Source: an uncultured Spirochaetota bacterium (lineage in GTDB: Bacteria > Spirochaetota > B62-G9 > DRHN01). From it: DNA of 64,000 nucleotides. The translations under genes and the position numbers were made by a program. Each line of letters begins with the position of its first letter. The first letter of the stretch is position 1. The stretch is taken from positions 10,611 to 74,610 of the forward strand of contig CAYSRJ010000014.1 of assembly GCA_964433545.1 (NCBI GenBank), in the 5' to 3' direction. Positions 5,965 through 56,588 of the stretch are shown here, piece after piece. Below the pieces are notes generated by a model, which saw nothing but the letters and a program-made list of their open reading frames with translations, had not been told where the DNA came from and searched no databases.

Positions 5965-5977
5965 CTGAATATTAAAA

Positions 5978-6002
5978 AGTAACTTTTATGAAGTTACTTA
6001 GA
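5978..6002. repeat. REP/MITE-like palindromic element copy (AGTAACTT-ttatg-AAGTTACT-TAGA)
   Basis: 8-bp perfect inverted repeat with a 5-nt loop. Same core as the copies at 7058, 39297, 53647, 53706 and 58047. Confidence 0.6.
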
Positions 6003-6178
6003 TGTATATAGGTTTTTAATCAACAATATTAGGTGATGGAGGGGGCGGAGCCATATTGGAAACAAAACTGGCGCAGGATAAGTAATGATGAGAGGGTGGT
6101 GATGAAGTTCAGGCAGTGTTTTTTTGTCTTTATCAATGGAGATTGGATTAAAGATTCAGAAATATTCAAAATAATTAC

Positions 6179-6206
6179 TTGACATTCAGAATATTTTTAA
6201 TATGAT
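6179..6206 (+). promoter_or_regulatory. sigma70-like promoter (TTGACA-16-TATGAT) upstream of the DeoR regulator gene
   Basis: Consensus -35 and near-consensus -10 with 16-nt spacing, about 40 nt upstream of the ATG at 6247. Confidence 0.35.
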
Positions 6207-6246
6207 TCAATAATATACATTATAAATTCTTCCTTTGGAAAAGTTA

Positions 6247-14138: not shown

Positions 14139-14314
14139 ACTGTATCGTCTTGATATAGATAGAAGCAGGTGTAGGGAATATAATTGAATAGCATGGGTCG
14201 GTTGTTCTTATTGTACGTTGAGGTGAAGCTACGCTTTTAAGTAGAGGAAAAAAGCCCTGTGCCCGGTAACAAAACTATTTCTCTGGTGCCCGTACAGTGT
14301 ATTAGCGCCCTTTA

Positions 14315-15586
14315 TTGATTTTGAAGTCTCAGGAAGAGGTACGGCAACTGCAGATTAAATACGTAAGCAATAGATGGCAGATCGTAAAGTCCTTCTACAC
14401 CGGTATCGGAAAATCGGCGGTACTGCTGCCGGCCGCCTTCCTCGTCGCCGCTGGTGTCGGTACTGTGGCCCTGGGTATGATTTTTTACGTGCGCGATGTC
14501 TTTGCAGCAACCCCGTCCCAGGTTGGATATCTTACCGCCCTGTGGTCCCTGAGCTATATCATGGGATGCCTCTTCATCCGCCAGGCATTCAACAGGGTTC
14601 TTCCACGCTTTCTTTTAATCGCTTCCACCTTTTTAATGAGTATGTTTGTGTTGGCTTCGGTTTTGTCACACAGGTTTTTCATGGTATACGTTTTTTACAG
14701 CCTGTGGGGCATTGCGATGTCACTTTTCTGGCCCTTTATTATGGGATGGCTGTCATACGGCATTGAAGGTGCGAAACTTGGCAGGGTATTATCCAACTAC
14801 AACTTTTCCTGGAGTATAGGCACAATAATCAGCCCCTTTCTCGCAGGTATTTTGAGCACGTTCTCCTCGCCACTGCCGCTTTTTTTTGGGAGTTCTCTAT
14901 TTTTCCTTACCTGCGTCTTTATCATCGGAGCCACCCTTACCCTGCCGAAGATCAAAGCTGATCGCTGGATCGAGGCCGCAAAAAAGAGTAACACATCCTT
15001 AAAGGACAGCAGTACACCGCTGAGATTCCCATCCCGGATTGGTTTATTCACGACCTATACGGTGGTTGGCGTGATTCTCAATATCTTTCCGGTTTACGCC
15101 CAGGCCGATCTCGGTGTGAGCAAGAGCCTCGTGGGTCTCATCCTCCAGCAGAGGGCAATCTTCGCGACCGTAGGGTTTATCGTTCTTGGACGAACCTCGT
15201 TCTGGCACTTTAAACCCTCGCAGATGATCGTCGGGCAGATTCTGCTTTCGGCAATGGTTTTCTTGCTTCAATATACGAGTATGCCTTTTCCCCTGGGCAT
15301 ACTGCTTGCCCTTATCGGTATCCTCATGTCGTTGAGCTATTTCAACAGCCTCTTCCACGGTGTATCGGGAAGCATCAACAGGGCGGGGAGGATGGCGATT
15401 CACGAGTCGATACTATCGGCGGGGCTCATAGTCGGGTCTTCAGTCGGCGGAATCCTGTATGAAAAATATGCCATGTCAACTGTATACCAGTTTTGCGCCG
15501 CTCTCGTGTTGATTGGGACAGTCCTGCAAACAGGCCTTGTTTTTAAAATACACGGAAAAGATGCTGTCATGAAAAACAGAAGGTAA
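14315..15586 (+). CDS. MFS transporter
   Basis: About 12 predicted TM helices. TTG start required to include TM1. Substrate unknown. Confidence 0.55.
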   Translation: MILKSQEEVRQLQIKYVSNRWQIVKSFYTGIGKSAVLLPAAFLVAAGVGTVALGMIFYVRDVFAATPSQVGYLTALWSLSYIMGCLFIRQAFNRVLPRFLLIASTFLMSMFVLASVLSHRFFMVYVFYSLWGIAMSLFWPFIMGWLSYGIEGAKLGRVLSNYNFSWSIGTIISPFLAGILSTFSSPLPLFFGSSLFFLTCVFIIGATLTLPKIKADRWIEAAKKSNTSLKDSSTPLRFPSRIGLFTTYTVVGVILNIFPVYAQADLGVSKSLVGLILQQRAIFATVGFIVLGRTSFWHFKPSQMIVGQILLSAMVFLLQYTSMPFPLGILLALIGILMSLSYFNSLFHGVSGSINRAGRMAIHESILSAGLIVGSSVGGILYEKYAMSTVYQFCAALVLIGTVLQTGLVFKIHGKDAVMKNRR

Positions 15587-23126: not shown

Positions 23127-24329
23127 ATGAAAAATACAATCGAACTGCTGAAAAATGCCCTTGACAGGGGGAACGGTATTTTACGCCTTTTTCCTAACTG
23201 GGTTCCCAGGGAGTTCTGCATTCCCGGAAGGCGGCTGAAGCTGCATCCGGATGATTATTTCTCGTTCGGCGCGCACAGGGGTGGAATCAGCGAGCGGTGG
23301 TTTGCATCAACCACAAAGGCTGATAACGGGCCTGAAACTCTTGAGGATGAGGGCTTGAGTTACATTTACATTGAGGACGGTTCCAAATCTGAAAAAGTAC
23401 TTTTCAAAGATGCGGTAGAGCTGATTGGGGAGGAAATTCTCGGAAAAGCGGTGATGGAAAAGCACGGCGGCTGGACGATGTATTCGAAATTCTTCGACAA
23501 TATGCAGCCTCTTCCCCATCATCTCCACCAGGATGATGAGAGTGCGGCGAAGGTGGGGCGAAAGGGAAAACCCGAGGGCTACTATTTTCCAAAGCAGCTC
23601 AACAACCATCCGGCCTGGTTCCCCTATACATTTTTCGGTCTCAACCCCGGTACCACGAAAGATCAGGTGCGAAAATGCCTGGAGAACTGGGAAAGGGGAG
23701 ACAACGGAATCCTGTACCTCTCGTGTGCGTATAAGCTGAAGCCGGGTACAGGCTGGGATGTTCCGTCCGGTATTCTTCACGCGCCCGGATCGTTTTTGAC
23801 CTATGAACCGCAGAGAGCTTCCGATGTGTTTGCCATGTTTCAGTCCCTTGTGTGGGAGCAGTATACTCCGTGGGACCTCCTGGTAAAGGATGTGCCGGAG
23901 GAGTACAGGCATGATCTTGACTACATTATAAATATGATAGACTGGGACCTGAATCTCGACCCGGATTTTTACAAAAACCGGTTTTTAGAGCCGAAACCCA
24001 TCAGGCCCGTAGAAGAGATGCGGGAAGAGGGCCATGCGGAATACCACATTGTGTATAACTCTGAGTATTTCAGTGCCAGGGAACTGACGGTTCTGCCTGG
24101 ACGTTCGGTCACAATAAAGGATGATGCCGCGTACGGATTAATTGTCATTCAGGGGCACGGAAAGTTCGGTGTGCTTGATGTGGAAGCACCTGCACTGATC
24201 AGATTCGGCCAGATGACGGGTGATGAGCTTTTCGTCAGCGTGAATGCCGCCCGGGAAGGCATCGCTGTTACAAATGAAAGCAGTACCGACGACCTCGTCA
24301 TGCTCAAGCATTTCGGACCGGGAGTGTAA
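23127..24329 (+). CDS. cupin-fold protein, class I mannose-6-phosphate-isomerase-like (function unknown)
   Basis: 400 aa. His-rich PHHLHQDD segment and SGILHAPGS resemble the Q/H metal-ligand and TPHAYLQG regions of type I PMI. Similarity is weak. Confidence 0.35.
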   Translation: MKNTIELLKNALDRGNGILRLFPNWVPREFCIPGRRLKLHPDDYFSFGAHRGGISERWFASTTKADNGPETLEDEGLSYIYIEDGSKSEKVLFKDAVELIGEEILGKAVMEKHGGWTMYSKFFDNMQPLPHHLHQDDESAAKVGRKGKPEGYYFPKQLNNHPAWFPYTFFGLNPGTTKDQVRKCLENWERGDNGILYLSCAYKLKPGTGWDVPSGILHAPGSFLTYEPQRASDVFAMFQSLVWEQYTPWDLLVKDVPEEYRHDLDYIINMIDWDLNLDPDFYKNRFLEPKPIRPVEEMREEGHAEYHIVYNSEYFSARELTVLPGRSVTIKDDAAYGLIVIQGHGKFGVLDVEAPALIRFGQMTGDELFVSVNAAREGIAVTNESSTDDLVMLKHFGPGV

Positions 24330-24793: not shown

Positions 24794-25246
24794 TTACACC
24801 CACTTGTTGAAGTTTTTAATGGTAACGAGGCTTTCGGTCGATGCAACCGTTCCGATTGTTGATAATTCATTGGTGAGAAAGTTTATAAGGTTATGCGGCT
24901 CGATGAAGAGTTCGACTATCAGGTCGAATCTTCCTGTGATCATCGAGACAGACCGTACATTGGGGAGATCTGATACTCTCTGCGCGGTTTCTTTCCACTT
25001 TTTATTCATCTGCAGCGTGACCAGGATATAGATGAGCTGTTTTTCCGTACCCTCGTCCGGATTGATGAGTCCTTTCACTTTCAGGAGGTTGTTCACGGTG
25101 AGTTTCTTTATGCGGTTTCGGACCGTGCCTTCCGAAATGGAAAGTCTGGCCGCTATCTCGTTGTTGGGTATACGCCCGTTTTGGGAGAGTATATCAACAA
25201 TTTCGAGGTCTATGGCATCTATTTTGATCATTCCATACTGTATCAT
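24794..25246 (-). CDS. Lrp/AsnC family transcriptional regulator
   Basis: HTH IDLEIVDILSQNGRIPNNEIAARLSISEGTVRNRIKKL plus a C-terminal RAM domain. Confidence 0.8.
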   Translation of the reverse strand: MIQYGMIKIDAIDLEIVDILSQNGRIPNNEIAARLSISEGTVRNRIKKLTVNNLLKVKGLINPDEGTEKQLIYILVTLQMNKKWKETAQRVSDLPNVRSVSMITGRFDLIVELFIEPHNLINFLTNELSTIGTVASTESLVTIKNFNKWV

Positions 25247-25474: not shown

Positions 25475-25609
25475 CTTACGAACAGAGAGCTCGAAGTCGC
25501 CTCACTGATTACCGAGGGAAATACGAGTAAGGAGATTGTGGATATCCTCTGCATAACACAAAAGGCGGTTGAGTTTTACAGGATGAACCTGAGAAAAAAA
25601 CTCAATCTC
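25475..25609 (+). pseudogene. orphan LuxR/FixJ-type C-terminal HTH fragment, in frame with and immediately upstream of the OYE-like gene
   Basis: Translation LTNRELEVASLITEGNTSKEIVDILCITQKAVEFYRMNLRKKLNL matches the LuxR-type HTH. No receiver or N-terminal domain, and no ATG between the upstream stop at 25451 and the HTH. Confidence 0.4.
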
Positions 25610-25711
25610 GGCCGCCGCGAAATGAATCTCAGGATGTGTCTGCTGTGTATACCTGTTCAATCAGAACGGGGTGAATTCCAACAGGATGTTTTACAACAGG
25701 AGGTTTTATTT

Positions 25712-26953
25712 ATGGAAGAAAACGATATTCTCTTTACACCGATCAAAATCGGAAGCAGGCAGGTGGAAAATCGTTTTGCAATCAACGCCATGGAATGCTG
25801 CGACTCGGACGAGGAGGGAAACCCAACGGACAAGACGTATCGGCGGTACGAGCGTCATTTCAGAGGGGAATCCGGGGTTATCGTGCTCGAAGCAATCACC
25901 GTTACCTACGAAAGCAGGGGACGACTCATGGAGCTCAGTGTTATGCCCCGGAACCGGAAAGCGCTGACTAAATTCGTGTCGGAAATGAAAAAGGTGAACG
26001 ACAAACCTCTCTTCTTCTGGCAACTTACCCACTCAGGCGAGTTGAGTCACCCGGATTTTTCCCGTCGGGTGTGTGTTAAACCGCTTCCCGGGTTCGGGGG
26101 AGACCTGCTCACCGAGGAAGATATCGGGAAGATCATGGACCAGTTCGTGCTTTCTGCCAAAATCGCCCACGACTGCGGCGCGGACGGCATAGATTTCAAA
26201 CTCTGCCACGGGTACCTGGGTTCACAGCTCCTCAGGCCCTACAATGACAGAAAATGGAAGTACGGCGGTTCATGGGAAAACCGAACGCGATTTGCCTATG
26301 AAACATACGAGAGAATCATAAGAGAGGTGAACGATCCGGATTTCATCGTCGGATCCAAGGTTTCGATATGGGAGGGTTTTCCGGGCGGCCAGGGCAGCGC
26401 CGGTCCGGATACGGCGATAATCGACCTTACAGAATCTTTAAATCTCGTGAAGGGTATCGAGGAGCGGGGCGCCCGATTCATCCTCGTTTCTGCAGGCTCC
26501 CCGTCGATTACCCTTGCACTTTCACAGCCTGATAAAAGCATACCGGACGATGTGTATCTTCACCATACCTTCCAGAAGGCGGTCAGCGATGTGGTCAAAC
26601 CTGAGACCGTCGTTATCGGCTCCGCCTACTCGGTGCTGCGGAACGGAAAGAACAAGCTCCTTGCGGTAAAGGAAGAGGAGGCGTCTGCACTGTACTGGGC
26701 GCGAAAGAACATCAAGGACGGGGTATGCGATATGATAGCCTTCGGACGCCAGTCGCTTGCGGACAGCCTTATTCCACTGAAGCTGAAAGAGGGGCGGGAA
26801 GATGAGATCAAGTGGTGCACGGCATGCGATAACTGCATAGAATTTTTGATCCGGCAGAAGAATGTCGGGTGCGCAACCTACGACAGGGAGTATACCGAGT
26901 CTTTGAAGAGAATCAGGGAAGAAGAGGGCTCCTTGAGGGCCAAGCATACCTGA
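25712..26953 (+). CDS. Old Yellow Enzyme-family FMN oxidoreductase with C-terminal 4Fe-4S cysteine motif (2,4-dienoyl-CoA reductase N-domain-like)
   Basis: HG(A)HGY-like CHGYLGSQLLRP, and C-x2-C-x2-C-x11-C (CTACDNCIEFLIRQKNVGC). ATG at 25712 preceded by AGGAGG. The ORF track extends it upstream through the LuxR fragment. Confidence 0.6.
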   Translation: MEENDILFTPIKIGSRQVENRFAINAMECCDSDEEGNPTDKTYRRYERHFRGESGVIVLEAITVTYESRGRLMELSVMPRNRKALTKFVSEMKKVNDKPLFFWQLTHSGELSHPDFSRRVCVKPLPGFGGDLLTEEDIGKIMDQFVLSAKIAHDCGADGIDFKLCHGYLGSQLLRPYNDRKWKYGGSWENRTRFAYETYERIIREVNDPDFIVGSKVSIWEGFPGGQGSAGPDTAIIDLTESLNLVKGIEERGARFILVSAGSPSITLALSQPDKSIPDDVYLHHTFQKAVSDVVKPETVVIGSAYSVLRNGKNKLLAVKEEEASALYWARKNIKDGVCDMIAFGRQSLADSLIPLKLKEGREDEIKWCTACDNCIEFLIRQKNVGCATYDREYTESLKRIREEEGSLRAKHT

Positions 26954-27127: not shown

Positions 27128-27649
27128 TTATACATCGATATCCACATCGATTTCAAGGCCGATACGGTCGAGGTCTTTTTTCATCCTTTCGAGGGAGACA
27201 TCCCCGGGAACCTGTATCTCGATATCCAGGGAGTAACGTACCGTTCCGCTCTCAGGCGAGGTGATGCGCCGGGATGTCAGGTTGGCGATATTCACCTTCA
27301 TCGATGAAAGGTAATCGCTTATCCGATACACGATACCGGTATGGTCGACCCCTTCGACATGTACACGCCGGGGGATAAACGGCTCCACTATCCACCCGCC
27401 TGATCTGTTTGCCGGACGGAAAAAGGCAGAAATTCCCCGCTGTTTCTCGAGCCGCCTGCATGCTTTTGCAAGGTCATCCTCGATATCCTCACGAATCGAG
27501 AAGAGGAGGATGATTGCGAATTCATCGGCAAGCCGGGTCATGGTGGAATCTTCGAGATTTCCCCCGATTTCGAATATAAGCCCGGCAACATCCGCAACGA
27601 CGCCAGGACGGTCTTTTCCGAATGCAGTTAGTACGTAATGCTTTTCCAT
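27128..27649 (-). CDS. gcvR: glycine cleavage system transcriptional regulator GcvR-like (tandem ACT domains)
   Basis: HYVLTAFGKDRPGVVADV aligns to E. coli GcvR HYLVITALGADRPGIV. Two ACT-like halves. Second ATG chosen because it follows GGGAGTGA. Confidence 0.6.
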   Translation of the reverse strand: MEKHYVLTAFGKDRPGVVADVAGLIFEIGGNLEDSTMTRLADEFAIILLFSIREDIEDDLAKACRRLEKQRGISAFFRPANRSGGWIVEPFIPRRVHVEGVDHTGIVYRISDYLSSMKVNIANLTSRRITSPESGTVRYSLDIEIQVPGDVSLERMKKDLDRIGLEIDVDIDV

Positions 27650-27924
27650 GTGTTTCACTCCCATTTCATATCACCGATTGATTACGTGTACAAAGACCTT
27701 TAATCCATGATAAATCAGGTGATTCCCTGTTTTTGCATCATTAATTATTGCATAAAAAACACAGCTTATCCAGTTCTTCTTCGTCTATGTGAACTTGATC
27801 ACGCCTGTAACGGCACTGTTATTAAACAAAGGTCTCGCTATTGATTATTTTCGTATTAATATAGCTCATATTACATATTATATGTAATTTTTTATAAATA
27901 AATTGTGTTATCTGTATTTATCAC

Positions 27925-27953
27925 TTGACAGAAAAGGTGGTACGGAGTATACT
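27925..27953 (+). promoter_or_regulatory. sigma70-like promoter TTGACA-17-TATACT for the SHMT-GcvT gene
   Basis: Perfect -35 and near-consensus -10 about 18 nt upstream of RBS GAAGGAG and the ATG at 27971. The leader is too short for a riboswitch. Confidence 0.4.
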
Positions 27954-27970
27954 GGCTGAAGGAGTGTACC

Positions 27971-30900
27971 ATGCATTATGCTGGTTATGTATTCGGCAAG
28001 ACGCTTGAGGATATCGATCCGACTATAGCAGGAATCGTAGAATTCGAGGAGGCGCGGCAGGCAAGAAAAATTATTCTCATTCCCTCCGAGAGCATATGCC
28101 CGGCGCCTGTGCTCAGAGCGCTTGGCTCTTCCTTTAATAACGTATATGCGGAAGGATATCCCTCTCGTTTCATGGAGGGTGAAGATGAGCCGACTCTGGC
28201 TGACATTGATTTCCAGCTCACCCGGTATAGGCGGTACGCGGACAGGCGGTTCTACAAGGGGTGTGAGTATGCAGATCTCGTCGAGAAGATCGCGGCGCGC
28301 AGGGCGGCACAGCTGTTTCGGACCAGGAAGAATTCACCTGAAAATATTTTTATCAATGTTCAGCCGCTCTCGGGTTCGATTGCAGTGAGCGCCGTATACG
28401 ATGCCTTTGTACAGCCCGGTGAAACCGTGATGGGTATGTCACTGATGCACGGTGGGCATCTCACCCACGGAAGCGAGTTCAACAGGTCTGGAAAACAGCA
28501 CCGAATCGTCTCCTACGAGGTTGATCCCGTATCGGGGAGGCTCGACTACTCCCGTATCATCGATCTTGCCGCTACACATAGGCCGCGGATGATTATTGCA
28601 GGCTATACCTCGTACCCCTGGGCCCCGGACTGGAAAAAATTCAGGAAGGCTGCTGATAGTGCCGGGGCAATACTGCTGGCCGATATTTCTCACCCGGCGG
28701 GGATGGTTACAGCCGGTGTATACCCAAATCCGGTCGATTATGCGGATGTTGTTGTATTCACCACGCATAAAACACTGTTCGGTCCCCGTGGCGCGGTCAT
28801 CATGACCACAAACAGGGAGTACGCTGAACGTATTGATCAGGCGGTGTTCCCCGGTGAGCAGGGGGGGCCCCACGTGAACAAGTTTGCAGCAATGGCGGTG
28901 GCATTCGGAATCGCAGGAAGTAGTGCATTTAAAAAAGTACAGAAGGATATTGTTGAAAACGCGCATTTTCTCGGACAGGTGCTCGAGCGAAACGGGCTGA
29001 AACTCGCCTACGGCGGAACAGATACCCATCTTCTTCTTCTCGACCTCAATTCGGTTGAAACGAAGAGCGGTTTTCCGCTCAAAGGTGAGATAGCTGTTCG
29101 AATCCTGGACCTTTGCGGGATCGTCGCCAACAAGAACACCATACCGGGCGACACAGCAACAGCCGAAGCGAGTGGCGTGCGTATCGGCACACCGTGGATC
29201 ACGCAAAGAGGAATAACGAGGACTGGGCTCGAGGAGTTAGGCGTTCTCATAGCAAAGACAATTAAAAACATACAGCCTTTCACCTACAGAGGGATCACCG
29301 GCGACCTGCCGAGAGGCAAGATTGACCTCGATCTGCTTGTCGATATACAAAGTCGCGTGGCGTCTCTTGCCGGGAGCCTCGAAAAACAGAAAGATGCAGC
29401 GGTAATGGGTTACCCCCAGTATGGCTTGCAGTCTGCAAAAGAAACTGCAGACAGCGCACATCACTTTTGCTCAATCCTGATTAAAGGGGAACGTTCTCCT
29501 CTGTTTCTTGAAGGGGTTTCCACACGTGCGATCAGCACATCTATACAGGGTAATGCAGTCGAAACCTTTTTACTCGGGGGTGACGGTACGCTTATTTCGC
29601 AGGCTGTTGTGGTAAGACTTTCTCCCGATAAAAGGGGGAAAGATCGATTTCTCCTCGTGTGCCCGGGTGAAACCTGTCAAAAGGTCCTGACCTGGCTCAG
29701 GGGCCTGTCCGACGGATACATCGCTTTTGATCCTCGTGATATTTTCAGAAAGATTGATGGCCCTGTTGTGATCAGGGAGCATGATGAGTGCAGTGAAGAC
29801 GAGAAACATGAGATCGAAGGTATGCTTGAAACGATTTCGCCACATCTGAAAATAGAGCAGAAAATAAAGGGGAAAAATTCCTCATCTTTCAAACCGGGGG
29901 CAGAGTCCCAGGAACTATATAGACAGCGGCCGGATTGCTTTGATGTTTCAAAGCCCTATTTTATCGGCATGCATGCTCTGGGTCGTGCGGCGAAAAATAC
30001 CGGTAAGAAAATTTTCCGCCCGGCAGAAGTGCTTCATAATAAACCAGGTGCAGGGAAACAAGGTGCAAAGCCGAGCTGTCTCTACGCGGAACACCTGAAG
30101 CTCAGGGCGCATATGGTTGCCTTTGCAGGATGGGAAATGCCGGTACGGTACGAGCGGATAATCGATGAGCACAGGGCTGTGCGACAGAACGCCGGGCTGT
30201 TCGATATCAGTCATATGGGTATTCTTGAGGTAAGTGGCAGGTTTTCAACACAGTTTCTTGATACGGTATACAGCAACTATGTCCCCTGGATAAAAACAGG
30301 GGAATCGATGTACGGGTACCTGCTTGACCCGGATGGCCACACGATCGATGATATCATGATTTACAAACTAGGCCATGAGAGATACATTGTGGTCGTAAAT
30401 GCGGCAAACAGTGACGTCGATATCAGGTGGCTCAATGCGGTAAATGAAAAAGCAGTTTGTATTGATGCCGATGTGCCGGTTCGGGAAATAATCGGTGATG
30501 TAGTTATTCGGAACCTCAAGGATATTCAGGCTGTCGGATCTGATGCGCGTGTCGGCATGGCCCTTCAGGGACCGGCCTCTTTGAAAGCCCTGTGCGCTCT
30601 CACCGACGCGGTCGGGACACAAATTTCACGCCTTGAGAAATCGACTTTTATTCAGTGTGAGATCGGCGGTTGCGATGTTCTGGTATCGAGGACAGGCTAT
30701 ACGGGGGAGGAGATAGGGTATGAGATCATGGTTCATCCAGACAGTGCGTCTCTTCTTTGGAACAGCCTACTCGATGTGGGTAGACCGTACGGAGTAAAGC
30801 CTGCGGGTCTTGGGGCGCGCGATTCTCTCAGAATCGAAGCAGGCCTCCCCCTGCATGGCCATGAGCTTGCAGGACCCTGGGATATAACTCCCCTGGAGGC

Positions 30901-31273
30901 AGGATTCGGCCCCTATGTAAAGTTTCACAAGGCTTTTTTCATCGGGAGAGACGCCTTTTTGCAGCGTATGAAGAAATCTACGATGGAGGTCGTACGTTTC
31001 AAGGTACGGACACGCGGTGTGCGCATGGCGAAAACGGGTGACTGCGTGGTTGAAATCAGAAGCCAGCGTATTATCGGCAGGGTGACGAGCTGCGCACAGG
31101 GAACCGATGAGCTGCAGGTCGGTATGGCGTATATCGACACCCGGTTTTCACGGGAGGGGACTCTGATAGGTATTATCAGTGCCTTTTCGGAAAATGAGAA
31201 AACTGTTTCCGGAAAAATCGGAGAAAAGTATCATCTACATATCGATGCCGGGATAATCAGCAGGTTTCCTTAG
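27971..31273 (+). CDS. fused serine hydroxymethyltransferase (N-terminal, about aa 1-460) - unknown middle region (about 200 aa) - aminomethyltransferase GcvT (C-terminal, about aa 690-1100)
   Basis: N-terminal SHMT segments (NVYAEGYP, LMHGGHLTHGS, TTHKTLFGPRG, VFPGEQGGPH). C-terminal GcvT segments (MPVRYERIIDEHRAVRQNAGLFDISHM, SRTGYTGEEIGYEI, GLGARDSLRIEAGLPL). A single continuous 1100-codon frame. Confidence 0.7.
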   Translation: MHYAGYVFGKTLEDIDPTIAGIVEFEEARQARKIILIPSESICPAPVLRALGSSFNNVYAEGYPSRFMEGEDEPTLADIDFQLTRYRRYADRRFYKGCEYADLVEKIAARRAAQLFRTRKNSPENIFINVQPLSGSIAVSAVYDAFVQPGETVMGMSLMHGGHLTHGSEFNRSGKQHRIVSYEVDPVSGRLDYSRIIDLAATHRPRMIIAGYTSYPWAPDWKKFRKAADSAGAILLADISHPAGMVTAGVYPNPVDYADVVVFTTHKTLFGPRGAVIMTTNREYAERIDQAVFPGEQGGPHVNKFAAMAVAFGIAGSSAFKKVQKDIVENAHFLGQVLERNGLKLAYGGTDTHLLLLDLNSVETKSGFPLKGEIAVRILDLCGIVANKNTIPGDTATAEASGVRIGTPWITQRGITRTGLEELGVLIAKTIKNIQPFTYRGITGDLPRGKIDLDLLVDIQSRVASLAGSLEKQKDAAVMGYPQYGLQSAKETADSAHHFCSILIKGERSPLFLEGVSTRAISTSIQGNAVETFLLGGDGTLISQAVVVRLSPDKRGKDRFLLVCPGETCQKVLTWLRGLSDGYIAFDPRDIFRKIDGPVVIREHDECSEDEKHEIEGMLETISPHLKIEQKIKGKNSSSFKPGAESQELYRQRPDCFDVSKPYFIGMHALGRAAKNTGKKIFRPAEVLHNKPGAGKQGAKPSCLYAEHLKLRAHMVAFAGWEMPVRYERIIDEHRAVRQNAGLFDISHMGILEVSGRFSTQFLDTVYSNYVPWIKTGESMYGYLLDPDGHTIDDIMIYKLGHERYIVVVNAANSDVDIRWLNAVNEKAVCIDADVPVREIIGDVVIRNLKDIQAVGSDARVGMALQGPASLKALCALTDAVGTQISRLEKSTFIQCEIGGCDVLVSRTGYTGEEIGYEIMVHPDSASLLWNSLLDVGRPYGVKPAGLGARDSLRIEAGLPLHGHELAGPWDITPLEAGFGPYVKFHKAFFIGRDAFLQRMKKSTMEVVRFKVRTRGVRMAKTGDCVVEIRSQRIIGRVTSCAQGTDELQVGMAYIDTRFSREGTLIGIISAFSENEKTVSGKIGEKYHLHIDAGIISRFP

Positions 31274-31314
31274 AAGGGTTTAGCGCTGAACAAAACATCT
31301 ACCGGGGGTATACC

Positions 31315-32541
31315 ATGGCAACAATTAAAGCATTCAGGGCGCTTGCCCCTGCACCAGAAAAGGCGCGGGCGGTTTCGAGTGTTCCGTACGATGTAGTAAC
31401 TGTTGAAGAGGCGAAAAATATGGCTGAGGGGAATCCGCTCAGCTTCCTTCATGTCATTCGTCCTGAAATAGATCTACCTGAGGGTATGAATCCATACGAC
31501 CCTGCGGTGTACCAGAAGGCCGCTCAAAATTTCCATACCCTGCGGCAAAAAAATCTTCTAATTCAGGACGACAGTCCTGTCCTGTATATCTACCGGCTGC
31601 AGGTAAACAGCCATGAGCAGACTGGTGTTGCGGGTTGCTGCCGGGTCGATGAATATGACCGTGACATTATTAAAAAACATGAACATACCAGGAAGGAAAA
31701 GGAGGATGACCGGGTCCGGCATATGCTCGCTCTCTCTGCCCATGCAGGACCTGTACTTATGACCTATCGGGGGATCCGGCATCTTGATGCATTGATCGAT
31801 CGCGAGAGAAAAAATGCTCCTCTCCATGATTTTACTGCCGTCGACGGTGTCCGGCATACGGTCTGGCGGGCTGAAAATTCTGAAGAGATAGAGGCTGTTT
31901 TTAAAGAGGTGCCTTATTTGTATATTGCAGATGGTCATCACCGGGCTGCAGGTGCGAGCCGAGTCCGGGAGGAAATGAGGAAAAAAAATATTGGTCGCGG
32001 TGACGACTCTTCAGCAGAGTACAATTTTTTTCTTGCCGTGCTCTTTCCATCTGAACAGCTCAGGATACTTTCGTACAACAGGCATGTCAGCGATCTCAAC
32101 GGACGAAGTGAAAAAGATTTTATGAAAGAAGTAAAAGCCCGATTCGATGTAGCTGAAACGACGAATCCTGCTCCAGCGCAAAAGGGTGTTTTTTGCATGT
32201 ATCTTGAAGGAACCTGGTTCAGCCTTACCGCTGCCGGAGATGTGAGCTCGAATGATCCTGTAAGTGCGCTCGATCTGAGCATATTTCAGAGACTGCTTTT
32301 AGAGCCGATACTCGGGATTATGGATCAGAAGAAGGACCGGCGCATCGATTTTGCCGGCGGTTCGGACAGCACCGAAAAACTCAAGGGGCTTGTCGATAAA
32401 AAGGGCGGGGTTGCATTTTCATTTTATCCTGTGGGCGCCGAGGAGCTTCTTGCGGTTGCCGATGCCGGCATGGTAATGCCGCCAAAATCGACCTGGTTTT
32501 CACCGAAGCTTCGGTCCGGGCTGCTCGTTCATCTATTCTGA
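31315..32541 (+). CDS. DUF1015 domain-containing protein (function unknown)
   Basis: 408 aa. Architecture and motifs (YIADGHHR) match the DUF1015 family, which commonly neighbours serA/serC. Confidence 0.55.
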   Translation: MATIKAFRALAPAPEKARAVSSVPYDVVTVEEAKNMAEGNPLSFLHVIRPEIDLPEGMNPYDPAVYQKAAQNFHTLRQKNLLIQDDSPVLYIYRLQVNSHEQTGVAGCCRVDEYDRDIIKKHEHTRKEKEDDRVRHMLALSAHAGPVLMTYRGIRHLDALIDRERKNAPLHDFTAVDGVRHTVWRAENSEEIEAVFKEVPYLYIADGHHRAAGASRVREEMRKKNIGRGDDSSAEYNFFLAVLFPSEQLRILSYNRHVSDLNGRSEKDFMKEVKARFDVAETTNPAPAQKGVFCMYLEGTWFSLTAAGDVSSNDPVSALDLSIFQRLLLEPILGIMDQKKDRRIDFAGGSDSTEKLKGLVDKKGGVAFSFYPVGAEELLAVADAGMVMPPKSTWFSPKLRSGLLVHLF

Positions 32542-32640
32542 CTATAAAGGCGAGCTAAGTGTGTCGGTATTCTTCGATCATATAAAAGGGGCACCTTAAG
32601 TAAATACCGGGGATTTTGAAGCTGTAAAAGGAGGTGGAAC

Positions 32641-33858
32641 ATGTCCATGAAGGTTTTAATTGCAGACAAGTTCCCAGATGAAAAGATCGATGAGTTGAGA
32701 AGTCTCGGATGCGAGACCATGTATGACCAGTCTCTCAAGGATGATTCGCTGCTTTCTGCTCTTCATACGCAGCAACCGGATGTGCTCATTGTACGTTCTA
32801 CTAAAGTGGACGCTGATATGATTAAAGCAGACAGGGGGCTGAACCTCATTATCAGGGCCGGCTCAGGGGTAAATACCATCGATGTAGAAACCGCATCGGC
32901 TAGGAGCATATACGTTGCCAACTGTCCCGGAAAAAATGCTGTGGCTGTTGCTGAGCTTGCGTTCGGGTTGATTCTTGCTCTGGACAGGAAGATTCCGGAC
33001 AATGTAATCCAGTTGAGGGACGGGAGGTGGAACAAGAAGGAATTTTCAAAGGCGAGCGGGATCAGCGGACGGACGCTTGGTGTGGTCGGTGTAGGCAGGA
33101 TCGGTAAAGAGGTCATTTCAAGGGCGCGGGCGTTCGGTATGCATGTGATTGCATGGAGCAGGTCCCTCGACCAACAGAAGGCCCGGCTTCTCGGCATCGA
33201 TTATCGAAAGAGTCCTGAGGCCCTGGCTCGCGATGCGGATATCGTGACGATTCACCTTGCACTTACCTCGGAAACCACTGGTCGTATTGGAAATACCTTC
33301 TTTCAGGCGATGAAACCAGGCGCCTGTTTCATCAATACATCGAGGGCTGAAGTCGTCGATGAACGGGCATTGTTGCTGGCCATAGCTGAAAAAGGAATAC
33401 GGGCCGGACTTGACGTTTTTGCAGAAGAACCCGCGGCGAAGGAAGGCGAGATTAAAAGTTCACTCACCGAATCTCCGAATGTGTACGGTACACATCATAT
33501 CGGTGCATCCACCGAGCAGGCGCAGAATGCTGTTGCAGACGAAACCATACATATCCTGCGGGAGTTTCTCCGAACTGGAAAGGTTGCCAATTGTGTGAAT
33601 CTCATGGAACGAACCCCCGCTCGCTGGATGCTTTCTGTTCATCACAAGAATCGTGTCGGGGTGCTTGCAGGAGTTCTTGATATTATTCGGGATGCTGGCA
33701 TAAATATCGAAACAATGGAGAATATTATTTTCAAGGGAGCAGACGGCGCCTGCGCGCGTATTCAGCTTGATGGTAAGATTTTAGACCGGAACATCAAGAA
33801 AATTGAAAACAGCAATGAAGATATACTATACGTATCGCAAGTAGAACTGGGAAGGTGA
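32641..33858 (+). CDS. serA: D-3-phosphoglycerate dehydrogenase (2-hydroxyacid dehydrogenase with C-terminal ACT domain)
   Basis: NAD-binding GVVGVGRIGKEV, catalytic R/E/H region and a C-terminal ACT-like segment. RBS AGGAGGTG. Confidence 0.8.
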   Translation: MSMKVLIADKFPDEKIDELRSLGCETMYDQSLKDDSLLSALHTQQPDVLIVRSTKVDADMIKADRGLNLIIRAGSGVNTIDVETASARSIYVANCPGKNAVAVAELAFGLILALDRKIPDNVIQLRDGRWNKKEFSKASGISGRTLGVVGVGRIGKEVISRARAFGMHVIAWSRSLDQQKARLLGIDYRKSPEALARDADIVTIHLALTSETTGRIGNTFFQAMKPGACFINTSRAEVVDERALLLAIAEKGIRAGLDVFAEEPAAKEGEIKSSLTESPNVYGTHHIGASTEQAQNAVADETIHILREFLRTGKVANCVNLMERTPARWMLSVHHKNRVGVLAGVLDIIRDAGINIETMENIIFKGADGACARIQLDGKILDRNIKKIENSNEDILYVSQVELGR

Positions 33859-33892
33859 GTCGCGGTTCAAGCGCGCGAAAGAGGAGGCGGTT

Positions 33893-34288
33893 ATGAAGTT
33901 TCCGGAAAATTTACGTTATACCGATGAGCATGAATGGATTTTACAGGATGGAAGTTTGGTGACGGTGGGTATTACGGATTATGCTCAGGGCCGGCTGGGT
34001 GATGTTGTATTCGTCGAAATGCCTGCAATCGGAACAAGGCTCAAACGGGGAGAAGCTGTCGGCGTCGTAGAATCCGTGAAAGCGGCATCGGATGTGTATG
34101 CACCTGTGGGTGGGGAGGTGGTCGAAACGAACGAGACTCTAATCGAGCATCCCGAATACGTCAATCTTTCTCCCTATAACGACGGCTGGATGGTGAGAAT
34201 TAAAATGAACGAACCATCCGAGATATCTCAACTGATGGACGGCGGCGCATACGGTGAGCTCGTAAAAAAAGAGTCTAAGGAAGGCTGA
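33893..34288 (+). CDS. gcvH: glycine cleavage system H protein
   Basis: 131 aa. Lipoyl-lysine motif ESVKAASDV. Confidence 0.9.
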   Translation: MKFPENLRYTDEHEWILQDGSLVTVGITDYAQGRLGDVVFVEMPAIGTRLKRGEAVGVVESVKAASDVYAPVGGEVVETNETLIEHPEYVNLSPYNDGWMVRIKMNEPSEISQLMDGGAYGELVKKESKEG

Positions 34289-34418
34289 AGCACATACTCG
34301 GCGTCGATCTACCTGGATTTAACAATTTTTGAGATATTACGGTTTGGTTGAATCGCCAGGTCGATGCTGAATGGGAATCGGCGGCATAGTACCGGTGTGT
34401 GATGAGAGGAGCGAATCG

Positions 34419-35765
34419 ATGAGTTATATTCCGAATACCGATGAAGATATTCACGATATGCTCCGGCTTATAGGATGCAGGGATGTTTCAGACCTGTTTT
34501 CACACATACCCGAAGATTTACAATTTAGTGAAGAACTTGATCTCCCGAAACCGCTTTCCGAACCCGACCTTGTTCGGCACATGCGGGGCCTGAGCATGAA
34601 GAACGCCCACCTGCGTGAATACTCCTCTTTTCTCGGCGGCGGTCTGTACAACCACTATATTCCTTCGGCTGTAAGCCAGCTTGCAGCACGTTCGGAGTTT
34701 TATACTTCCTATACTCCATATCAACCGGAGGTAAGCCAGGGAACACTGCAGGCCATATTCGAGTACCAGTCGCTTATGTGCTCACTTTCCGGTATGGATG
34801 TTTCTAATGCTTCGGTGTATGACGGGGCAACGAGTGTTGCCGAGGCGGTGCTCATGGGACTCAGGATAAACAGGCGAAATACAGTTATCCTGTCCAGATC
34901 CTTGAACCCGCAGTACCGCGCGGTGATAGAGACGTACATGAAAGGGCATGCGAAGATACTCGAAACTCCATGGGACAAACATGGGGTAACGGATATCAAA
35001 AAACTCTCGGCAATGCTCGATGAATCCGTATCAAGCGTTGTGCTTCAGTCACCTAACTTCTTTGGGATTCTCGAAGACCTACAGAAGTTTGAAAAAGAGG
35101 TACACGCGCAGGGCGCGCTTTTTATCGCCGTGTTTTCAGAGCCGCTTGCCTTCGGAATAATCAACCCACCCGGTGTGTACAATGCGGATATCGCCTGCGG
35201 TGAGGGACAGAGCCTTGGAATTCCTCCCGGGTACGGCGGACCGCTGCTCGGTATACTCACCTGCAAGAGGGATTTCATTCGCAGCATGCCGGGGCGTATT
35301 GCAGGCATGTCCGTCGACCGGAAAGGAAACAGGGCGTTCGTGCTCACTCTGACGGCGCGCGAACAGCATATACGGCGTGAAAAGGCGACGTCGAATATCT
35401 GCACCAATCAGGGGTTATGTGCGCTGACGGCTGCACTGTATCTGAGCGCATTGGGAAAGAAGGGATTTCAACGCGTCGGTCTGCTTAATTATGAGCGTGC
35501 CGAATACGCTAAGAAGGTTTTTGCCGGGGTCAGCGGATTCAGATTGAAGTTCAACGCGCCTACATTCAACGAATTTGTTCTCGAAACCGACCTGAATGTT
35601 GAAAAACTCATGCAGCACGCAATCGAGAAGAAGTTTATTCCCGGGCTGTCTCTTTCACCTTATTATAAGGAGCTTACAAACTGTCTGCTGGTAAACGTTA
35701 CTGAGATGAACACAAAAAAAGAGATCGATTCACTTGGCACCGTCTTGAGTGAATGCGGAAAGTAA
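34419..35765 (+). CDS. gcvPA: glycine dehydrogenase (decarboxylating) subunit 1
   Basis: Split-type P-protein N-terminal subunit. ATG preceded by GAGAGGAG. Confidence 0.85.
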   Translation: MSYIPNTDEDIHDMLRLIGCRDVSDLFSHIPEDLQFSEELDLPKPLSEPDLVRHMRGLSMKNAHLREYSSFLGGGLYNHYIPSAVSQLAARSEFYTSYTPYQPEVSQGTLQAIFEYQSLMCSLSGMDVSNASVYDGATSVAEAVLMGLRINRRNTVILSRSLNPQYRAVIETYMKGHAKILETPWDKHGVTDIKKLSAMLDESVSSVVLQSPNFFGILEDLQKFEKEVHAQGALFIAVFSEPLAFGIINPPGVYNADIACGEGQSLGIPPGYGGPLLGILTCKRDFIRSMPGRIAGMSVDRKGNRAFVLTLTAREQHIRREKATSNICTNQGLCALTAALYLSALGKKGFQRVGLLNYERAEYAKKVFAGVSGFRLKFNAPTFNEFVLETDLNVEKLMQHAIEKKFIPGLSLSPYYKELTNCLLVNVTEMNTKKEIDSLGTVLSECGK

Positions 35766-35783
35766 TAAAACCGGAGAACGTAC

Positions 35784-37268
35784 GTGGACATTTCATTGGA
35801 TAAAGAAACGGCTTTTGCAGAAGAGCCGCTTGTTTTTGAAAAGGGATCGCCGGGAAGAACCGCTGTCGAGCTCCCCGAGACCTGGAATAATGAAACCCTG
35901 CTGAAGAAATCGCTGCCTCCATCGATGATCCGAAATTCCTTCGAAGGGTTTCCAGAGATAAGCCAGGTCGAACTTGTCAGGCATTTCACGAGGCTTTCAC
36001 AGTGGAACTACGGGCTCGACACCGGGTTCTATCCCCTTGGTTCGTGTACCATGAAGTATAATCCGAAGGTCCATGAAGACATCGTGAAGCTCGAGGGTTT
36101 CAGCTTCATCCACCCCCTGCAACCGGAGGAGCTTGCACAGGGTGCTTTGCAGATTATGTACGAGCTTGAAAGATACCTGGCTTCTATCACCGGAATGGAC
36201 AGGGTTACGCTGCAGCCTGCGGCCGGAGCGCACGGGGAACTGACCGGCATGACTATGATACGGGCCTATTTTACGGACCGGGGAGAGAAACGGACAAAGG
36301 TGCTTATCCCTGATACAGCACACGGCACAAACCCCGCGAGTGTGAGTATGTGCGGGTTTACACCGGTGCCGATCAAATCGGGGAAAGGAGGGTGGCTGGA
36401 AGCTGCTGCGGTCGATGCGGTAATGGACGAAAACACCGCGGCGATCATGATCACCAACCCGAATACACTCGGAATATTCGAGGAGGAGATGGGCAGGATT
36501 GCAGAAATAGTACACAGTAAGGGCGGGCTTTTGTATATAGACGGTGCAAATCTCAACGCACTTATGGGAATTGTCCGCTTCGGGGATATCGGGTGTGATG
36601 TGCTTCACATGAATCTGCACAAGACCTTTTCAACTCCGCATGGCGGCGGGGGTCCCGGAGCCGGACCTGTTGCAGTCAAAGATACACTCGCCTCGTTTCT
36701 CCCTGTGCCCGTTATCGAGAAGAAAGACGATGTATTCAGCCTCGATTACGATCTTAAAAAATCGATCGGCAGGGTAAAAAGCTTTTACGGCAATTTTCTC
36801 GTCTGCGTCAGGGCGTATGCGTATATACGAACCCTGGGCTGGGCGGGACTGAAGAGGGTATCTCAGACAGCGGTGGTAAACGCGAACTACCTGCGTAAGA
36901 GGCTCGAGAGATATTTTTTCCTTCCATATAAAACACCGTGTATGCATGAGTGCGTCTTTACCGACAGGGAGCAGCAAAAACACGGTGTCAGCACACTTGA
37001 TATTGCGAAACGGCTCATCGATTACGAATTTCACCCGCCGACTATTTACTTTCCCCTCGTTGTGCATGGTGCGCTCATGGTCGAACCGACGGAAACCGAA
37101 AGCAGGGTAACGCTTGATCGTTTCATAGATGCAATGATAGCTATTGCTGATGAAGCGGAGAAATCCCCCGATATACTGCACAATGCACCGCAGAGGGTGA
37201 AAATAACGAGAGTCGATGAGGTACAGGCAGCGAGAAAGCCGATACTTCGATGGAAGGATATGAAATAG
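35784..37268 (+). CDS. gcvPB: glycine dehydrogenase (decarboxylating) subunit 2
   Basis: PLP-lysine region HMNLHKTFSTPHGGGGPGAGP. GTG start after GGAGAA. Confidence 0.85.
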   Translation: MDISLDKETAFAEEPLVFEKGSPGRTAVELPETWNNETLLKKSLPPSMIRNSFEGFPEISQVELVRHFTRLSQWNYGLDTGFYPLGSCTMKYNPKVHEDIVKLEGFSFIHPLQPEELAQGALQIMYELERYLASITGMDRVTLQPAAGAHGELTGMTMIRAYFTDRGEKRTKVLIPDTAHGTNPASVSMCGFTPVPIKSGKGGWLEAAAVDAVMDENTAAIMITNPNTLGIFEEEMGRIAEIVHSKGGLLYIDGANLNALMGIVRFGDIGCDVLHMNLHKTFSTPHGGGGPGAGPVAVKDTLASFLPVPVIEKKDDVFSLDYDLKKSIGRVKSFYGNFLVCVRAYAYIRTLGWAGLKRVSQTAVVNANYLRKRLERYFFLPYKTPCMHECVFTDREQQKHGVSTLDIAKRLIDYEFHPPTIYFPLVVHGALMVEPTETESRVTLDRFIDAMIAIADEAEKSPDILHNAPQRVKITRVDEVQAARKPILRWKDMK

Positions 37269-37445
37269 GAACCTTAGAAGTGGTGTGAATCCCCCCGGGG
37301 AATGACATTTGCGGGACGTGCCATTTCGAGGTCGATCCTTGACAGGGCTCGGTATCACAACTATCTTAATAAAAGTTACTTAGAAATGGAACCATTTCGC
37401 GGCCGAGTATTACAACTATCTTAATCCAAGGTACTTAGAAACAGC
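37269..37445. repeat. degenerate composite copies of the REP/MITE-like family in the convergent gcvPB/HDAC intergenic region
   Basis: CTTAGAAG at 37273. CCCCCCGGGG box at 37291. AAGTTACTTAGAA at 37373. TTTCGCGGCCGAGTAT at 37395. Direct 16-mer duplication CACAACTATCTTAAT at 37356 and 37412. Confidence 0.5.
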
Positions 37446-56528: not shown

Positions 56529-56588
56529 TTGACAATATGTTTTTAAAAAATTAAAATGACGATTAAACGTAATCCTTTACGTTAATCG
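56529..56588 (+). promoter_or_regulatory. promoter TTGACA-17-TAAAAT followed by a 29-bp near-perfect palindrome (CGATTAAACGTAA-tcc-TTTACGTTAATCG), candidate LacI-family operator
   Basis: The palindrome overlaps the predicted +1, upstream of the sugar SBP gene and divergent from the LacI gene. Two AAACGTTT palindromes also lie at 56341-56365. Confidence 0.4.

Follow-up and report, generated by a model that had tools for sequence, protein, structure and literature searches.

A serine hydroxymethyltransferase-T-protein fusion at the head of a conserved serine-glycine gene cluster in an uncultured Spirochaetota bacterium

In this study, we examine a gene cluster that brings together serine synthesis and glycine cleavage in a 64,000-nucleotide stretch of DNA (the window, hereafter) from an uncultured Spirochaetota bacterium. 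The cluster occupies positions 27971-37268 and consists of six genes on the same strand, with a gene for a double-ACT protein upstream and divergent. Its most unusual item is the first gene, a single open reading frame (ORF) in which a serine hydroxymethyltransferase (SHMT) is joined, through a degenerate T-like module (T'), to an intact T-protein, the aminomethyltransferase that belongs to the glycine cleavage system (GCS). The cluster is a clade-specific conserved arrangement, whose full form reads serC-[SHMT-T'-T]-DUF1015-serA-gcvH-gcvPA-gcvPB, and we propose with moderate confidence that it encodes a folate-coupled module for serine-glycine interconversion, with a mainly anabolic flux in the present organism. 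Relative to the literature that we searched, what is new is the natural covalent fusion of SHMT and T-protein with its conserved pseudo-T module in several anaerobic phyla, the conserved operon that unites this fusion with a serine pathway of the SerBK type, and a GcvR-like ACT protein that recurs with gcv genes where no GcvA is visible. Each enzyme of the cluster is already known, and a gcv cluster devoid of a riboswitch is ordinary by itself. The features of the cluster and of its upstream region are the following.

27128-27649, minus strand: gene of a GcvR-like double-ACT protein (called ACT2 here), 173 residues according to gene finders, the longest ORF extending to 27664 (178 residues); Pfam ACT_6 at 63.5 bits and ACT_4 at 41.6 bits
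27870-27888, no strand assigned: perfect 19-bp palindrome ATTACATAT-T-ATATGTAAT, a candidate operator 37 nucleotides 5' of the -35 box
27925-27953, plus strand: predicted sigma-70-type promoter TTGACA-17-TATACT, matching 11 of 12 consensus positions
27958-27964, plus strand: Shine-Dalgarno motif GAAGGAG, 6 nucleotides before the ATG, as read from the sequence
27971-31273, plus strand: SHMT-T'-T fusion, 1100 residues in one ORF; Pfam SHMT at 384.6 bits and GCV_T at 279.3 bits
27971-29275, plus strand: module 1 of the fusion, SHMT, residues 1-435; NF000586 at 408 bits (cut-off 335)
29291-30040, plus strand: module 2 of the fusion, truncated degenerate T-like module (T'), residues about 441-690; partial GCV_T match at 33.9 bits, profile positions 47-123 of 255
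30041-31273, plus strand: module 3 of the fusion, intact T-protein (aminomethyltransferase), residues 691-1100; TIGR00528 at 270 bits (cut-off 235.85) over residues 701-1066
31315-32541, plus strand: DUF1015 (SerBK family) gene; Pfam PF06245 at 327.9 bits, profile positions 1-324 of 325
32641-33858, plus strand: SerA-like gene with a C-terminal ACT domain; 2-Hacid_dh_C at 164.5 bits plus ACT; the start given by gene callers is 32647
33893-34288, plus strand: GcvH, the lipoyl carrier; TIGR00527 at 154 bits (cut-off 115.85), with an ESVKA lipoyl-lysine motif
34371-35765, plus strand: GcvPA, glycine dehydrogenase subunit 1; NF001696 at 600.8 bits (cut-off 364)
35784-37268, plus strand: GcvPB, glycine dehydrogenase subunit 2; NF003346 at 730.6 bits (cut-off 441)

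A preliminary description of this stretch had listed SHMT-GcvT, DUF1015, serA, gcvH, gcvPA and gcvPB as co-oriented genes with a divergent double-ACT gene upstream, and this layout is borne out by the ORF listing and by the Pfam and NCBIfam scans. In particular, GcvH, GcvPA, GcvPB and the SHMT and T modules of the fusion all exceed the curated NCBI cut-offs. The gene order is identical on at least four independent metagenome contigs, which means that the locus is real sequence. The gaps that separate the genes from the fusion to gcvPB are short (41, 99, 34, 82 and 18 nucleotides, respectively) and none of the five holds a terminator-like site, so that the simplest reading, and the most likely one, is that of a single transcription unit; over the cluster region, terminator-like sites are at chance level (15 against 10.7 +/- 2.9 expected). 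This compactness supports the notion, also put forward in that description, of a module that links 3-phosphoglycerate, serine, glycine and one-carbon (C1) units. No Pyr_redox_2-type gene for the L-protein (dihydrolipoyl dehydrogenase, lpd) is found among the annotated ORFs of the window (64 kb of the genome), which are also the scope of the negatives given below for fhs, folD, formate dehydrogenase and LysR. The L-protein is commonly encoded away from the gcv genes, and a working system is compatible with its absence from the window.

Both domains announced by the earlier name SHMT-GcvT are present in the fusion, but its three-module nature, with a degenerate second T-like module in the middle, had been missed. 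The SHMT module matches the Bacillus stearothermophilus enzyme with an E-value of about 1e-95, and the residues K267 (the pyridoxal phosphate lysine, within TTHKT), E61, Y95 and R404 are invariant in 32 aligned members of the family. It also carries a family-specific conserved insertion of about 25-30 residues after the AEGYP motif, at positions of about 64-91 and beside the active-site loop, which divides the Pfam SHMT match in two. At the other end of the protein, the T module is very close to the Bacillus subtilis T-protein 1YX2 (E 4.9e-63) and retains FDISHMG, IDD, SRTGYTGE and GLGARDSLR, its catalytic motifs aligning with the Thermotoga maritima enzyme (1WOO) as well. The predicted T module superposes on solved T-proteins with template modelling (TM) scores of 0.85-0.87 in Foldseek. 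The SHMT part of the whole-fusion model superposes poorly (TM 0.49, root-mean-square deviation of about 20 A).

The middle region was considered as a mere linker or as a new domain, and both are ruled out: it is a truncated GcvT paralogue, 25% identical to module 3 (E 6e-8), in which the catalytic IDD has become ISQ. This module is probably catalytically dead. Ten of its positions are the same in all 32 aligned members (R508, W575, D581, Y583, F586, D590, K594, G597, P598 and K661). The long-form relatives, of 1215-1250 residues, which are found in Anaerolineae and Aerophobetes, hold a complete second T-like domain at this position, so the ancestral architecture appears to be SHMT-T'-T, with T' trimmed in the present lineage.

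An assembly or frameshift artefact is ruled out as the origin of the fusion, which is uninterrupted on at least four contigs of the organism, has more than 100 independent homologues and keeps its middle module. Indeed, the best 120 whole-protein homologues are all of 1063-1278 residues and have both domains; those that are named come from Spirochaetota, Anaerolineae, Aerophobetes and unclassified metagenome-assembled genomes (MAGs), and NCBI labels them just 'GcvT'. When 1.84 billion cluster representatives were searched with module 2, 184 clusters (50% identity) reached E<=1e-3, of which 106 also reached E<=1e-10; full-length matches carry the module at residues of about 440-690. In a genome scan with the same module, fusions were seen, among the matches listed (at least 600), in MAGs of Chloroflexota, Thermodesulfobacteriota, Myxococcota, Bipolaricaulota, Planctomycetota and Armatimonadota; the matches listed are mostly Chloroflexota and ordinary gcvT, and the near clade defined below was recovered from metagenome contigs. 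The closest named homologues of the fusion and of the DUF1015 protein belong to Spirochaetota, Marispirochaeta included, and named homologues are at 55-61% identity. The cultured Marispirochaeta aestuarii has a DUF1015-serC pair only, with no fusion within 10 kb of it. A natural SHMT-T-protein fusion is not described anywhere in the literature searched, most subscription journals being outside its coverage. The nearest known designs are the other fusions of the GcvT-family folate domain (dimethylglycine oxidase and dehydrogenase, the alpha subunit of sarcosine oxidase, trimethylamine N-oxide demethylase), in which a tetrahydrofolate (THF)-binding GcvT fold is likewise joined to a catalytic module that makes or uses C1 units. 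The T module does match trimethylamine N-oxide demethylase and SoxA models, with sub-threshold scores. However, its partner here is a second folate enzyme and not an oxidase or a demethylase, and its equivalog score designates it as an H-protein-dependent aminomethyltransferase.

The genomic neighbourhood of the fusion was compared by tblastn over 66 fusion loci, cited below by L numbers, the near clade being defined as those in which the SHMT module is at least 69% identical. DUF1015 lies directly 3' of the fusion in 11 of the 11 near-clade loci with enough downstream DNA, whereas this is the case in none of the 50 distant ones; the linkage of DUF1015 with serA and the gcv genes is conserved within this clade. 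On the 3' side of DUF1015, serA-gcvH-gcvPA-gcvPB follow in the near-clade loci wherever the contig reaches, serA coming directly after DUF1015 in all eight loci with enough downstream DNA. Moreover, a true serC sits directly 5' of the fusion in five relatives (L086, L087, L091, L093 and L094; TIGR01364 at 491 bits, cut-off 443.6). It is because of these counts and of the upstream serC that we consider the arrangement to be specific to the clade. In the 50 distant loci, gcvH is next to the fusion in four (L026, L098, L110 and L112), and gcvP genes are within reach in nine.

There is no serC within the 64-kb window. A class-V aminotransferase encoded at 13023-14138 was considered as the missing SerC and ruled out, as it is AGXT/PhnW-like, falls below all the cut-offs and gives no tblastn match to the SerC of L087 at E<=1e-5. 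Its gene adjoins that of a glycerol kinase, and a 33%-identical homologue is found between gcvPA and gcvPB in L035 (15319-16485), an Anaerolineae locus with a glycine riboswitch, which hints at a link of this aminotransferase with glycine or serine metabolism.

The role of the DUF1015 protein had been described as unknown, a statement that is now outdated. According to the GapMind 2026 preprint (10.1101/2024.10.14.618325), DUF1015 genes are commonly adjacent to serA and serC, genomes with DUF1015 beside serA mostly have no serB, and the Clostridium botulinum protein complements an Escherichia coli serB mutant. The predicted fold resembles that of the serine kinase SbnI, and the family was named SerBK; a kinase that runs backwards is, however, thermodynamically awkward, the forward reaction being favoured, and in Bacteroides thetaiotaomicron the gene is important for the use of serine as a nitrogen source (same preprint). 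We reproduced the claim of a serine-kinase fold on the protein of the window, at the level of a predicted structure. The AlphaFold2 model, built from 24 homologues, has a confidence score (pLDDT) of 92.5, and its only significant Foldseek matches in the PDB are free serine kinases, namely SerK (5X0E) and its relatives, SbnI (5UJE and 6NR6) and a Pyrococcus furiosus relative (1VK1), with E-values of 8e-8 to 3e-6 and a probability of 1.00, the next match being at 0.015. At the sequence level, the protein matches no PDB chain. The resemblance to SerK of Thermococcus kodakarensis (PMC5120207) and to SbnI of Staphylococcus thus goes together with an identity of 12-16% and TM scores of 0.5-0.6, DUF1015 being about 170 residues longer. 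In line with the function put forward in the preprint, the protein of the window would be a free-serine kinase that replaces phosphoserine phosphatase. Clusters of serC, serA and DUF1015 are known from Clostridioides difficile, C. botulinum and B. thetaiotaomicron (10.1101/2024.10.14.618325), and they share with the present one the adjacency of DUF1015 and serA, the serC seen in relatives and the serine-kinase-like fold. Here, in contrast, the DUF1015-serA pair is placed between the fused SHMT-T gene and gcvH-gcvPA-gcvPB. The linkage of DUF1015 to the fusion and to the GCS appears to be new, since the words 'glycine cleavage' are nowhere in the main text of that preprint.

For the SerA-like protein, the best NCBIfam matches are phosphoglycerate dehydrogenase models, both under their cut-offs (TIGR01327, 282 bits against 454; NF008759, 209 against 404). 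Its assignment as SerA is supported by the 2-Hacid_dh plus ACT architecture and by its conserved position between SerBK and gcvH, and its ACT loop reads HHKNRVGVL, of the H-x-N type.

The promoter that precedes the fusion was predicted beforehand as a consensus TTGACA-17-TATACT, and it indeed agrees with the sigma-70 consensus at all positions but one. The 64 kb contain two promoters this near the consensus where 0.54 would be expected, and both hexamers are kept in L085 and L088, the two closest relatives; it looks like a strong and constitutive promoter. It had been placed about 18 nucleotides before the ribosome binding site, but there are in fact 17 nucleotides between the end of the -10 box and the ATG (27971), and only about 5-7 between the end of the -10 box and the Shine-Dalgarno motif, for a predicted 5' untranslated region of about 11 nucleotides.

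The absence of a glycine riboswitch, which had also been anticipated, holds as well. The Rfam scan of the whole window gave zero matches at gathering scores, and RF00504 is absent from 27600-28050 even at E<=10, where only three junk matches appear. This negative is meaningful because the same tool does detect RF00504 in distant relatives, with scores of 47.6-70.8 bits (loci L009, L019, L035, L038, L098 and L110); none was found in the nine near-clade loci scanned. The control of the operon is therefore either protein-based or absent. We describe two of the distant riboswitch operons here. In L009 (409-13098, from a Thermodesulfobacteriota MAG), a tandem glycine riboswitch is followed by an aminotransferase, a glyoxylate/hydroxypyruvate-reductase-like gene, a lipoate-protein ligase, gcvH, gcvPA, gcvPB, an unknown ORF of 446 residues, a long-form SHMT-T'-T and, as the last gene of the operon, a homologue of ACT2. 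In L110 (8634-18697), and in the same way in L098, the riboswitch precedes an unknown ORF of 393 residues, the fusion, gcvH, gcvPA, gcvPB, an alpha/beta hydrolase and a D-serine-dehydratase-like protein. The operons of the B. subtilis type, in which a tandem glycine riboswitch controls gcvT-gcvPA-gcvPB, resemble the present cluster in that the T-protein gene comes first and the split PA and PB genes after it, and the distant fusion relatives L009, L035, L098 and L110 still have the upstream RF00504 aptamers. The present cluster differs in that it has no riboswitch, that SHMT and a degenerate T-like module precede T in one fused protein, and that gcvH and the serine genes lie inside the operon.

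If the control is protein-based, the GcvR-like protein had been put forward as the regulator, and this holds only in part. ACT2 aligns end to end with the putative GcvR of Vibrio cholerae (1U8S; residues 5-173, E 2.8e-9) and with 2NYI (residues 8-176), and like GcvR it is made of two tandem ACT domains with no DNA-binding domain. However, its score on the NCBIfam GcvR equivalog (NF008612) is 55 bits where the cut-off is 267, over residues 6-56 only, and it is GcvR-like in architecture only, not a GcvR equivalog as far as these scores tell. Having no DNA-binding domain, it cannot be a regulator alone, and no LysR/GcvA-type gene is seen among the annotated ORFs of the window. The family counts 601 homologues at E<=1e-10, most of about 175 residues, which JGI labels 'glycine cleavage system transcriptional repressor' and NCBI 'ACT domain-containing protein'. 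Its gene is divergent from the fusion operon in the window, in L085 and in L088; besides the homologue that closes the riboswitch operon of L009, another comes directly after gcvH-gcvPA-gcvPB in L128, and in L130 one heads a co-directional run of ACT2, an APH kinase, an unknown gene, serC, the fusion, DUF1015, serA and gcvH. This context supports well a functional tie between ACT2 and glycine cleavage, although one homologue adjoins an MTTB-family methyltransferase instead. The ACT2 gene is not found in every cluster of this kind, although gcvR had been listed among its genes: an ACT gene is nearby in only three near-relative lineages and is missing from most near-clade clusters. As an observation in its own right, the stretch between the ACT2 gene and serC in L130 (6023-9957) holds the APH-family kinase together with an unknown protein of 372 residues.

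A DNA-binding partner is a better candidate for direct control than ACT2, and a possible gene for it lies on the far side of the ACT2 gene.

24794-25231, minus strand: AsnC/Lrp-family regulator; Pfam HTH_AsnC-type and AsnC_trans_reg, a putative member of the system

The proximity of this gene to the ACT gene is conserved in L085, where the two are directly adjacent on the same strand, and in L088. The 19-bp palindrome upstream of the promoter is unique in the 64 kb (0.02 expected by chance) and is kept in L085 with both arms and in L088 with one arm exact. Considered as a clade-wide operator, its half-site ATATGTAAT has exact copies in the window and in L085, L087 and L088. Since copies with one mismatch turn up 0.1-0.6 times per kb in these loci, which are rich in AT, matches of that kind mean little. 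We infer from this conservation that the AsnC/Lrp protein and the palindrome may form the DNA-binding half of the control. The present locus resembles gcvTHP of E. coli and its regulators GcvA, GcvR and Lrp in having, by its gcv genes, a double-ACT protein similar from end to end to a putative GcvR, with an Lrp-family gene in the vicinity; the differences are that ACT2 is not a GcvR equivalog, that no GcvA-type LysR gene is seen, and that gene order and content are not the same. An Old-Yellow-Enzyme-family flavoprotein gene (25538-26953) is located between the AsnC/Lrp and ACT genes in the window and in L088, is absent from that place in L085, and seems to have been inserted recently between the two regulator genes.

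We can now detail how the module would work. SerA and the DUF1015/SerBK protein, standing in for SerB, would join 3-phosphoglycerate to serine, with SerC encoded elsewhere in the genome, while GcvH, GcvPA and GcvPB would supply glycine cleavage, with an L-protein also encoded elsewhere. SHMT and the T-protein are the only two THF-using enzymes of the operon, and each makes the folate form that the other consumes. Within the fusion, methylene-THF and THF could then cycle between the two active sites and never leave the protein, and this hand-over of folate would be the obvious benefit of the fusion. Together with H and P, it would interconvert serine + CO2 + NH3 + 2[H] and 2 glycine; provided with free THF, the same proteins would instead give glycine and C1 units. 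The SHMT and T steps are consecutive only if the methylene-THF of one feeds the other, that is, in the conversion of 2 glycine to serine + CO2 + NH3 or in its reverse. The net flux would most likely start from 3-phosphoglycerate and lead by way of serine to glycine and C1 units, whose two pools would be kept in balance by the fused enzyme. On top of this, the GcvR-like double-ACT protein may sense a ligand and would depend on a partner to bind DNA, possibly the AsnC/Lrp protein at the conserved palindrome. The order SHMT, T, H has a precedent, as serine has been taken to methylene-THF and to aminomethyl-lipoyl-H in vitro with separate proteins (PMC11736057). The same net chemistry is also that of the textbook plant mitochondrial glycine decarboxylase and SHMT of photorespiration, where methylene-THF passes from T-protein to SHMT (2 glycine <-> serine + CO2 + NH3); the plant proteins are separate, whereas here there is one polypeptide with a pseudo-T module, in an anaerobic heterotroph.

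The direction of the flux is not readable from the sequence, and several indications favour the anabolic one. SerA keeps its ACT domain with the H-x-N loop, canonical serC genes accompany the cluster in relatives, no glycine-inducible element is visible and the promoter appears strong and is conserved. The complementation of serB by DUF1015, and the genomes that have DUF1015 by serA and mostly lack serB (10.1101/2024.10.14.618325), would go in the same direction. Other points weigh against our proposal. The fusion is the sole pointer to a folate hand-over, and with a plain flux from serine to glycine to CO2 both modules make methylene-THF, so that channelling brings no gain. SerA is below both phosphoglycerate dehydrogenase cut-offs, and the gaps of 99 and 82 nucleotides could conceal internal promoters or processing sites. 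Glycine riboswitches usually turn on glycine consumption, and those that command the fusion and the gcv genes in distant relatives point to the opposite direction in those lineages. Finally, the kinase fold of DUF1015 and its role in serine utilisation in B. thetaiotaomicron also fit the reverse direction.

These last points lead to the main alternative, which we regard as possible though unlikely, in which the module serves glycine catabolism or assimilation: 2 glycine would give serine + CO2 + NH3, with T handing methylene-THF to SHMT, and serine would be phosphorylated by the SerBK kinase and then converted to 3-phosphoglycerate by SerC and SerA working in reverse. The fusion joins consecutive folate steps in precisely this direction, the DUF1015 model matches free serine kinases only, the forward kinase reaction is the one favoured thermodynamically (10.1101/2024.10.14.618325), and an oligopeptide uptake system encoded in the window makes peptide-derived glycine a plausible substrate. 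Moreover, the riboswitch operons of distant lineages pair the fusion and the GCS with enzymes that could potentially lead from serine to three-carbon compounds: the aminotransferase and the glyoxylate/hydroxypyruvate-reductase-like protein of L009, the D-serine-dehydratase-like proteins of L098 and L110, and the AGXT-like aminotransferase of L035. But neither the window nor the nine near-clade loci show a glycine riboswitch or any other glycine-responsive element, the ACT domain of SerA, typical of feedback inhibition by serine, would block the reverse route at high serine, and no serine-pathway genes are visible other than those of the operon, which in relatives count a canonical serC among them. 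It could also be that we are dealing with an ordinary biosynthetic operon, which leads from 3-phosphoglycerate through serine to glycine and C1 units. Excess glycine would be oxidised by the GCS, and the fusion and its middle module would only equalise protein amounts or stabilise a complex with H. All the parts are standard enzymes above family cut-offs, fusions of functionally linked enzymes that do no channelling are, as is generally known, common, and the anabolic indicators (serB complementation by DUF1015, the ACT domain of SerA) are shared with our proposal. We nonetheless find this improbable. The fusion and the extra module are kept over several phyla, with ten invariant residues and with an SHMT insertion by the active-site loop, and because of this conservation we think that the physical link matters, which suggests that selection acts on it.

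Two further alternatives borrow the same enzymes for other ends. The reductive glycine pathway is reportedly present in Desulfovibrio desulfuricans, and its set of T, H, P and SHMT genes is the one found here; a reversed GCS would build glycine from fixed CO2 and a C1 unit that derives from formate, and SHMT would add a second C1 unit to give serine for central metabolism. Members of the fusion family do occur in anaerobes, including a Thermodesulfobacteriota MAG. Yet fhs, folD, formate dehydrogenase and lpd are missing from the annotated ORFs, the surrounding genes for sugar and peptide uptake and catabolism are those of a heterotroph, and both modules consume methylene-THF in the reductive direction, leaving nothing to hand over, all of which makes this explanation very improbable. 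In the other, the main task of the fusion would be to charge the H-protein with an aminomethyl group, derived from serine and ammonium, that goes into the dithiomethylamine bridge of [FeFe]-hydrogenase. In a defined in vitro maturation, SHMT, T and H give the ligand precursor in exactly that order (PMC11736057), and the fusion family is found in fermentative anaerobic phyla. There are, however, no hyd genes nearby, both P subunits and the serine-synthesis genes would be superfluous, and a trace flux would suffice for maturation, which is hard to square with a strong promoter; we consider this role extremely improbable.

With the anabolic interconversion module as the preferred reading, a bolder and rather unlikely version deserves to be set out. 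SHMT-pseudoT-T would be an undescribed bifunctional enzyme for direct methylene-THF hand-over that makes up, with H and P, a self-sufficient apparatus for the interconversion of serine and 2 glycine, wired in this clade to SerBK, SerC and SerA as an unrecognised route between glycine and 3-phosphoglycerate. This route would be either a backward phosphoserine pathway, in which SerBK phosphorylates serine, or a forward, ATP-conserving version, the reversed kinase reaction being made feasible by the downstream pull from SHMT and the GCS. The latter, if true, would address the thermodynamic puzzle that SerBK poses (10.1101/2024.10.14.618325), and the cluster in any case offers a concrete context for DUF1015 as a kinase or a reversed kinase. 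Should folate be channelled in the fusion, the engineering of the reductive glycine pathway would have in it a component ready for use, and it would also offer a natural test of whether the coupling of glycine decarboxylase and SHMT gains from physical linkage.

Several minor observations concern the cluster and its relatives. The 82-nucleotide gap between gcvH and gcvPA is spanned by a long hairpin (34298-34370, plus strand) that has no U-tract, the minimum free energy for the gap being -25.7 kcal/mol. It is possibly an element for mRNA processing or stability, and it is not kept in L085 or in L087, where the gap is of 21 nucleotides only. The convergent gap 3' of gcvPB contains a 20-nucleotide direct repeat, GGTATCACAACTATCTTAAT, at 37351, with a second copy bearing two mismatches at 37406 (none expected by chance), together with a promoter-like TTGACA-17-TATCTT at 37339-37367. 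No obvious gene is seen in this gap (37339-37425), and the repeat region might correspond to a small RNA or to a binding site present more than once. The complete MAG L086 (CP070841.1, Spirochaetota) has its ornithine carbamoyltransferase gene in two pieces (5740-6629), and its gcvPA is a call of 68 residues (14188-14391) with no gcvPB, which could be due to frameshift errors in the assembly or to a real decay of the P-protein genes.

Elsewhere in the window, two HAD-family enzymes are encoded, either of which may or may not be a SerB.

1396-2082: HAD hydrolase
5090-5770: HAD hydrolase

The other near-consensus sigma-70 site of the window is TTGACA-17-TAAAAT at 56529-56557, just 5' of a solute-binding protein gene at 56610. 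Finally, an ORF of 400 residues with no Pfam match (23127-24329) lies 3' of a fucose-isomerase-like gene, a position that is conserved in L085.

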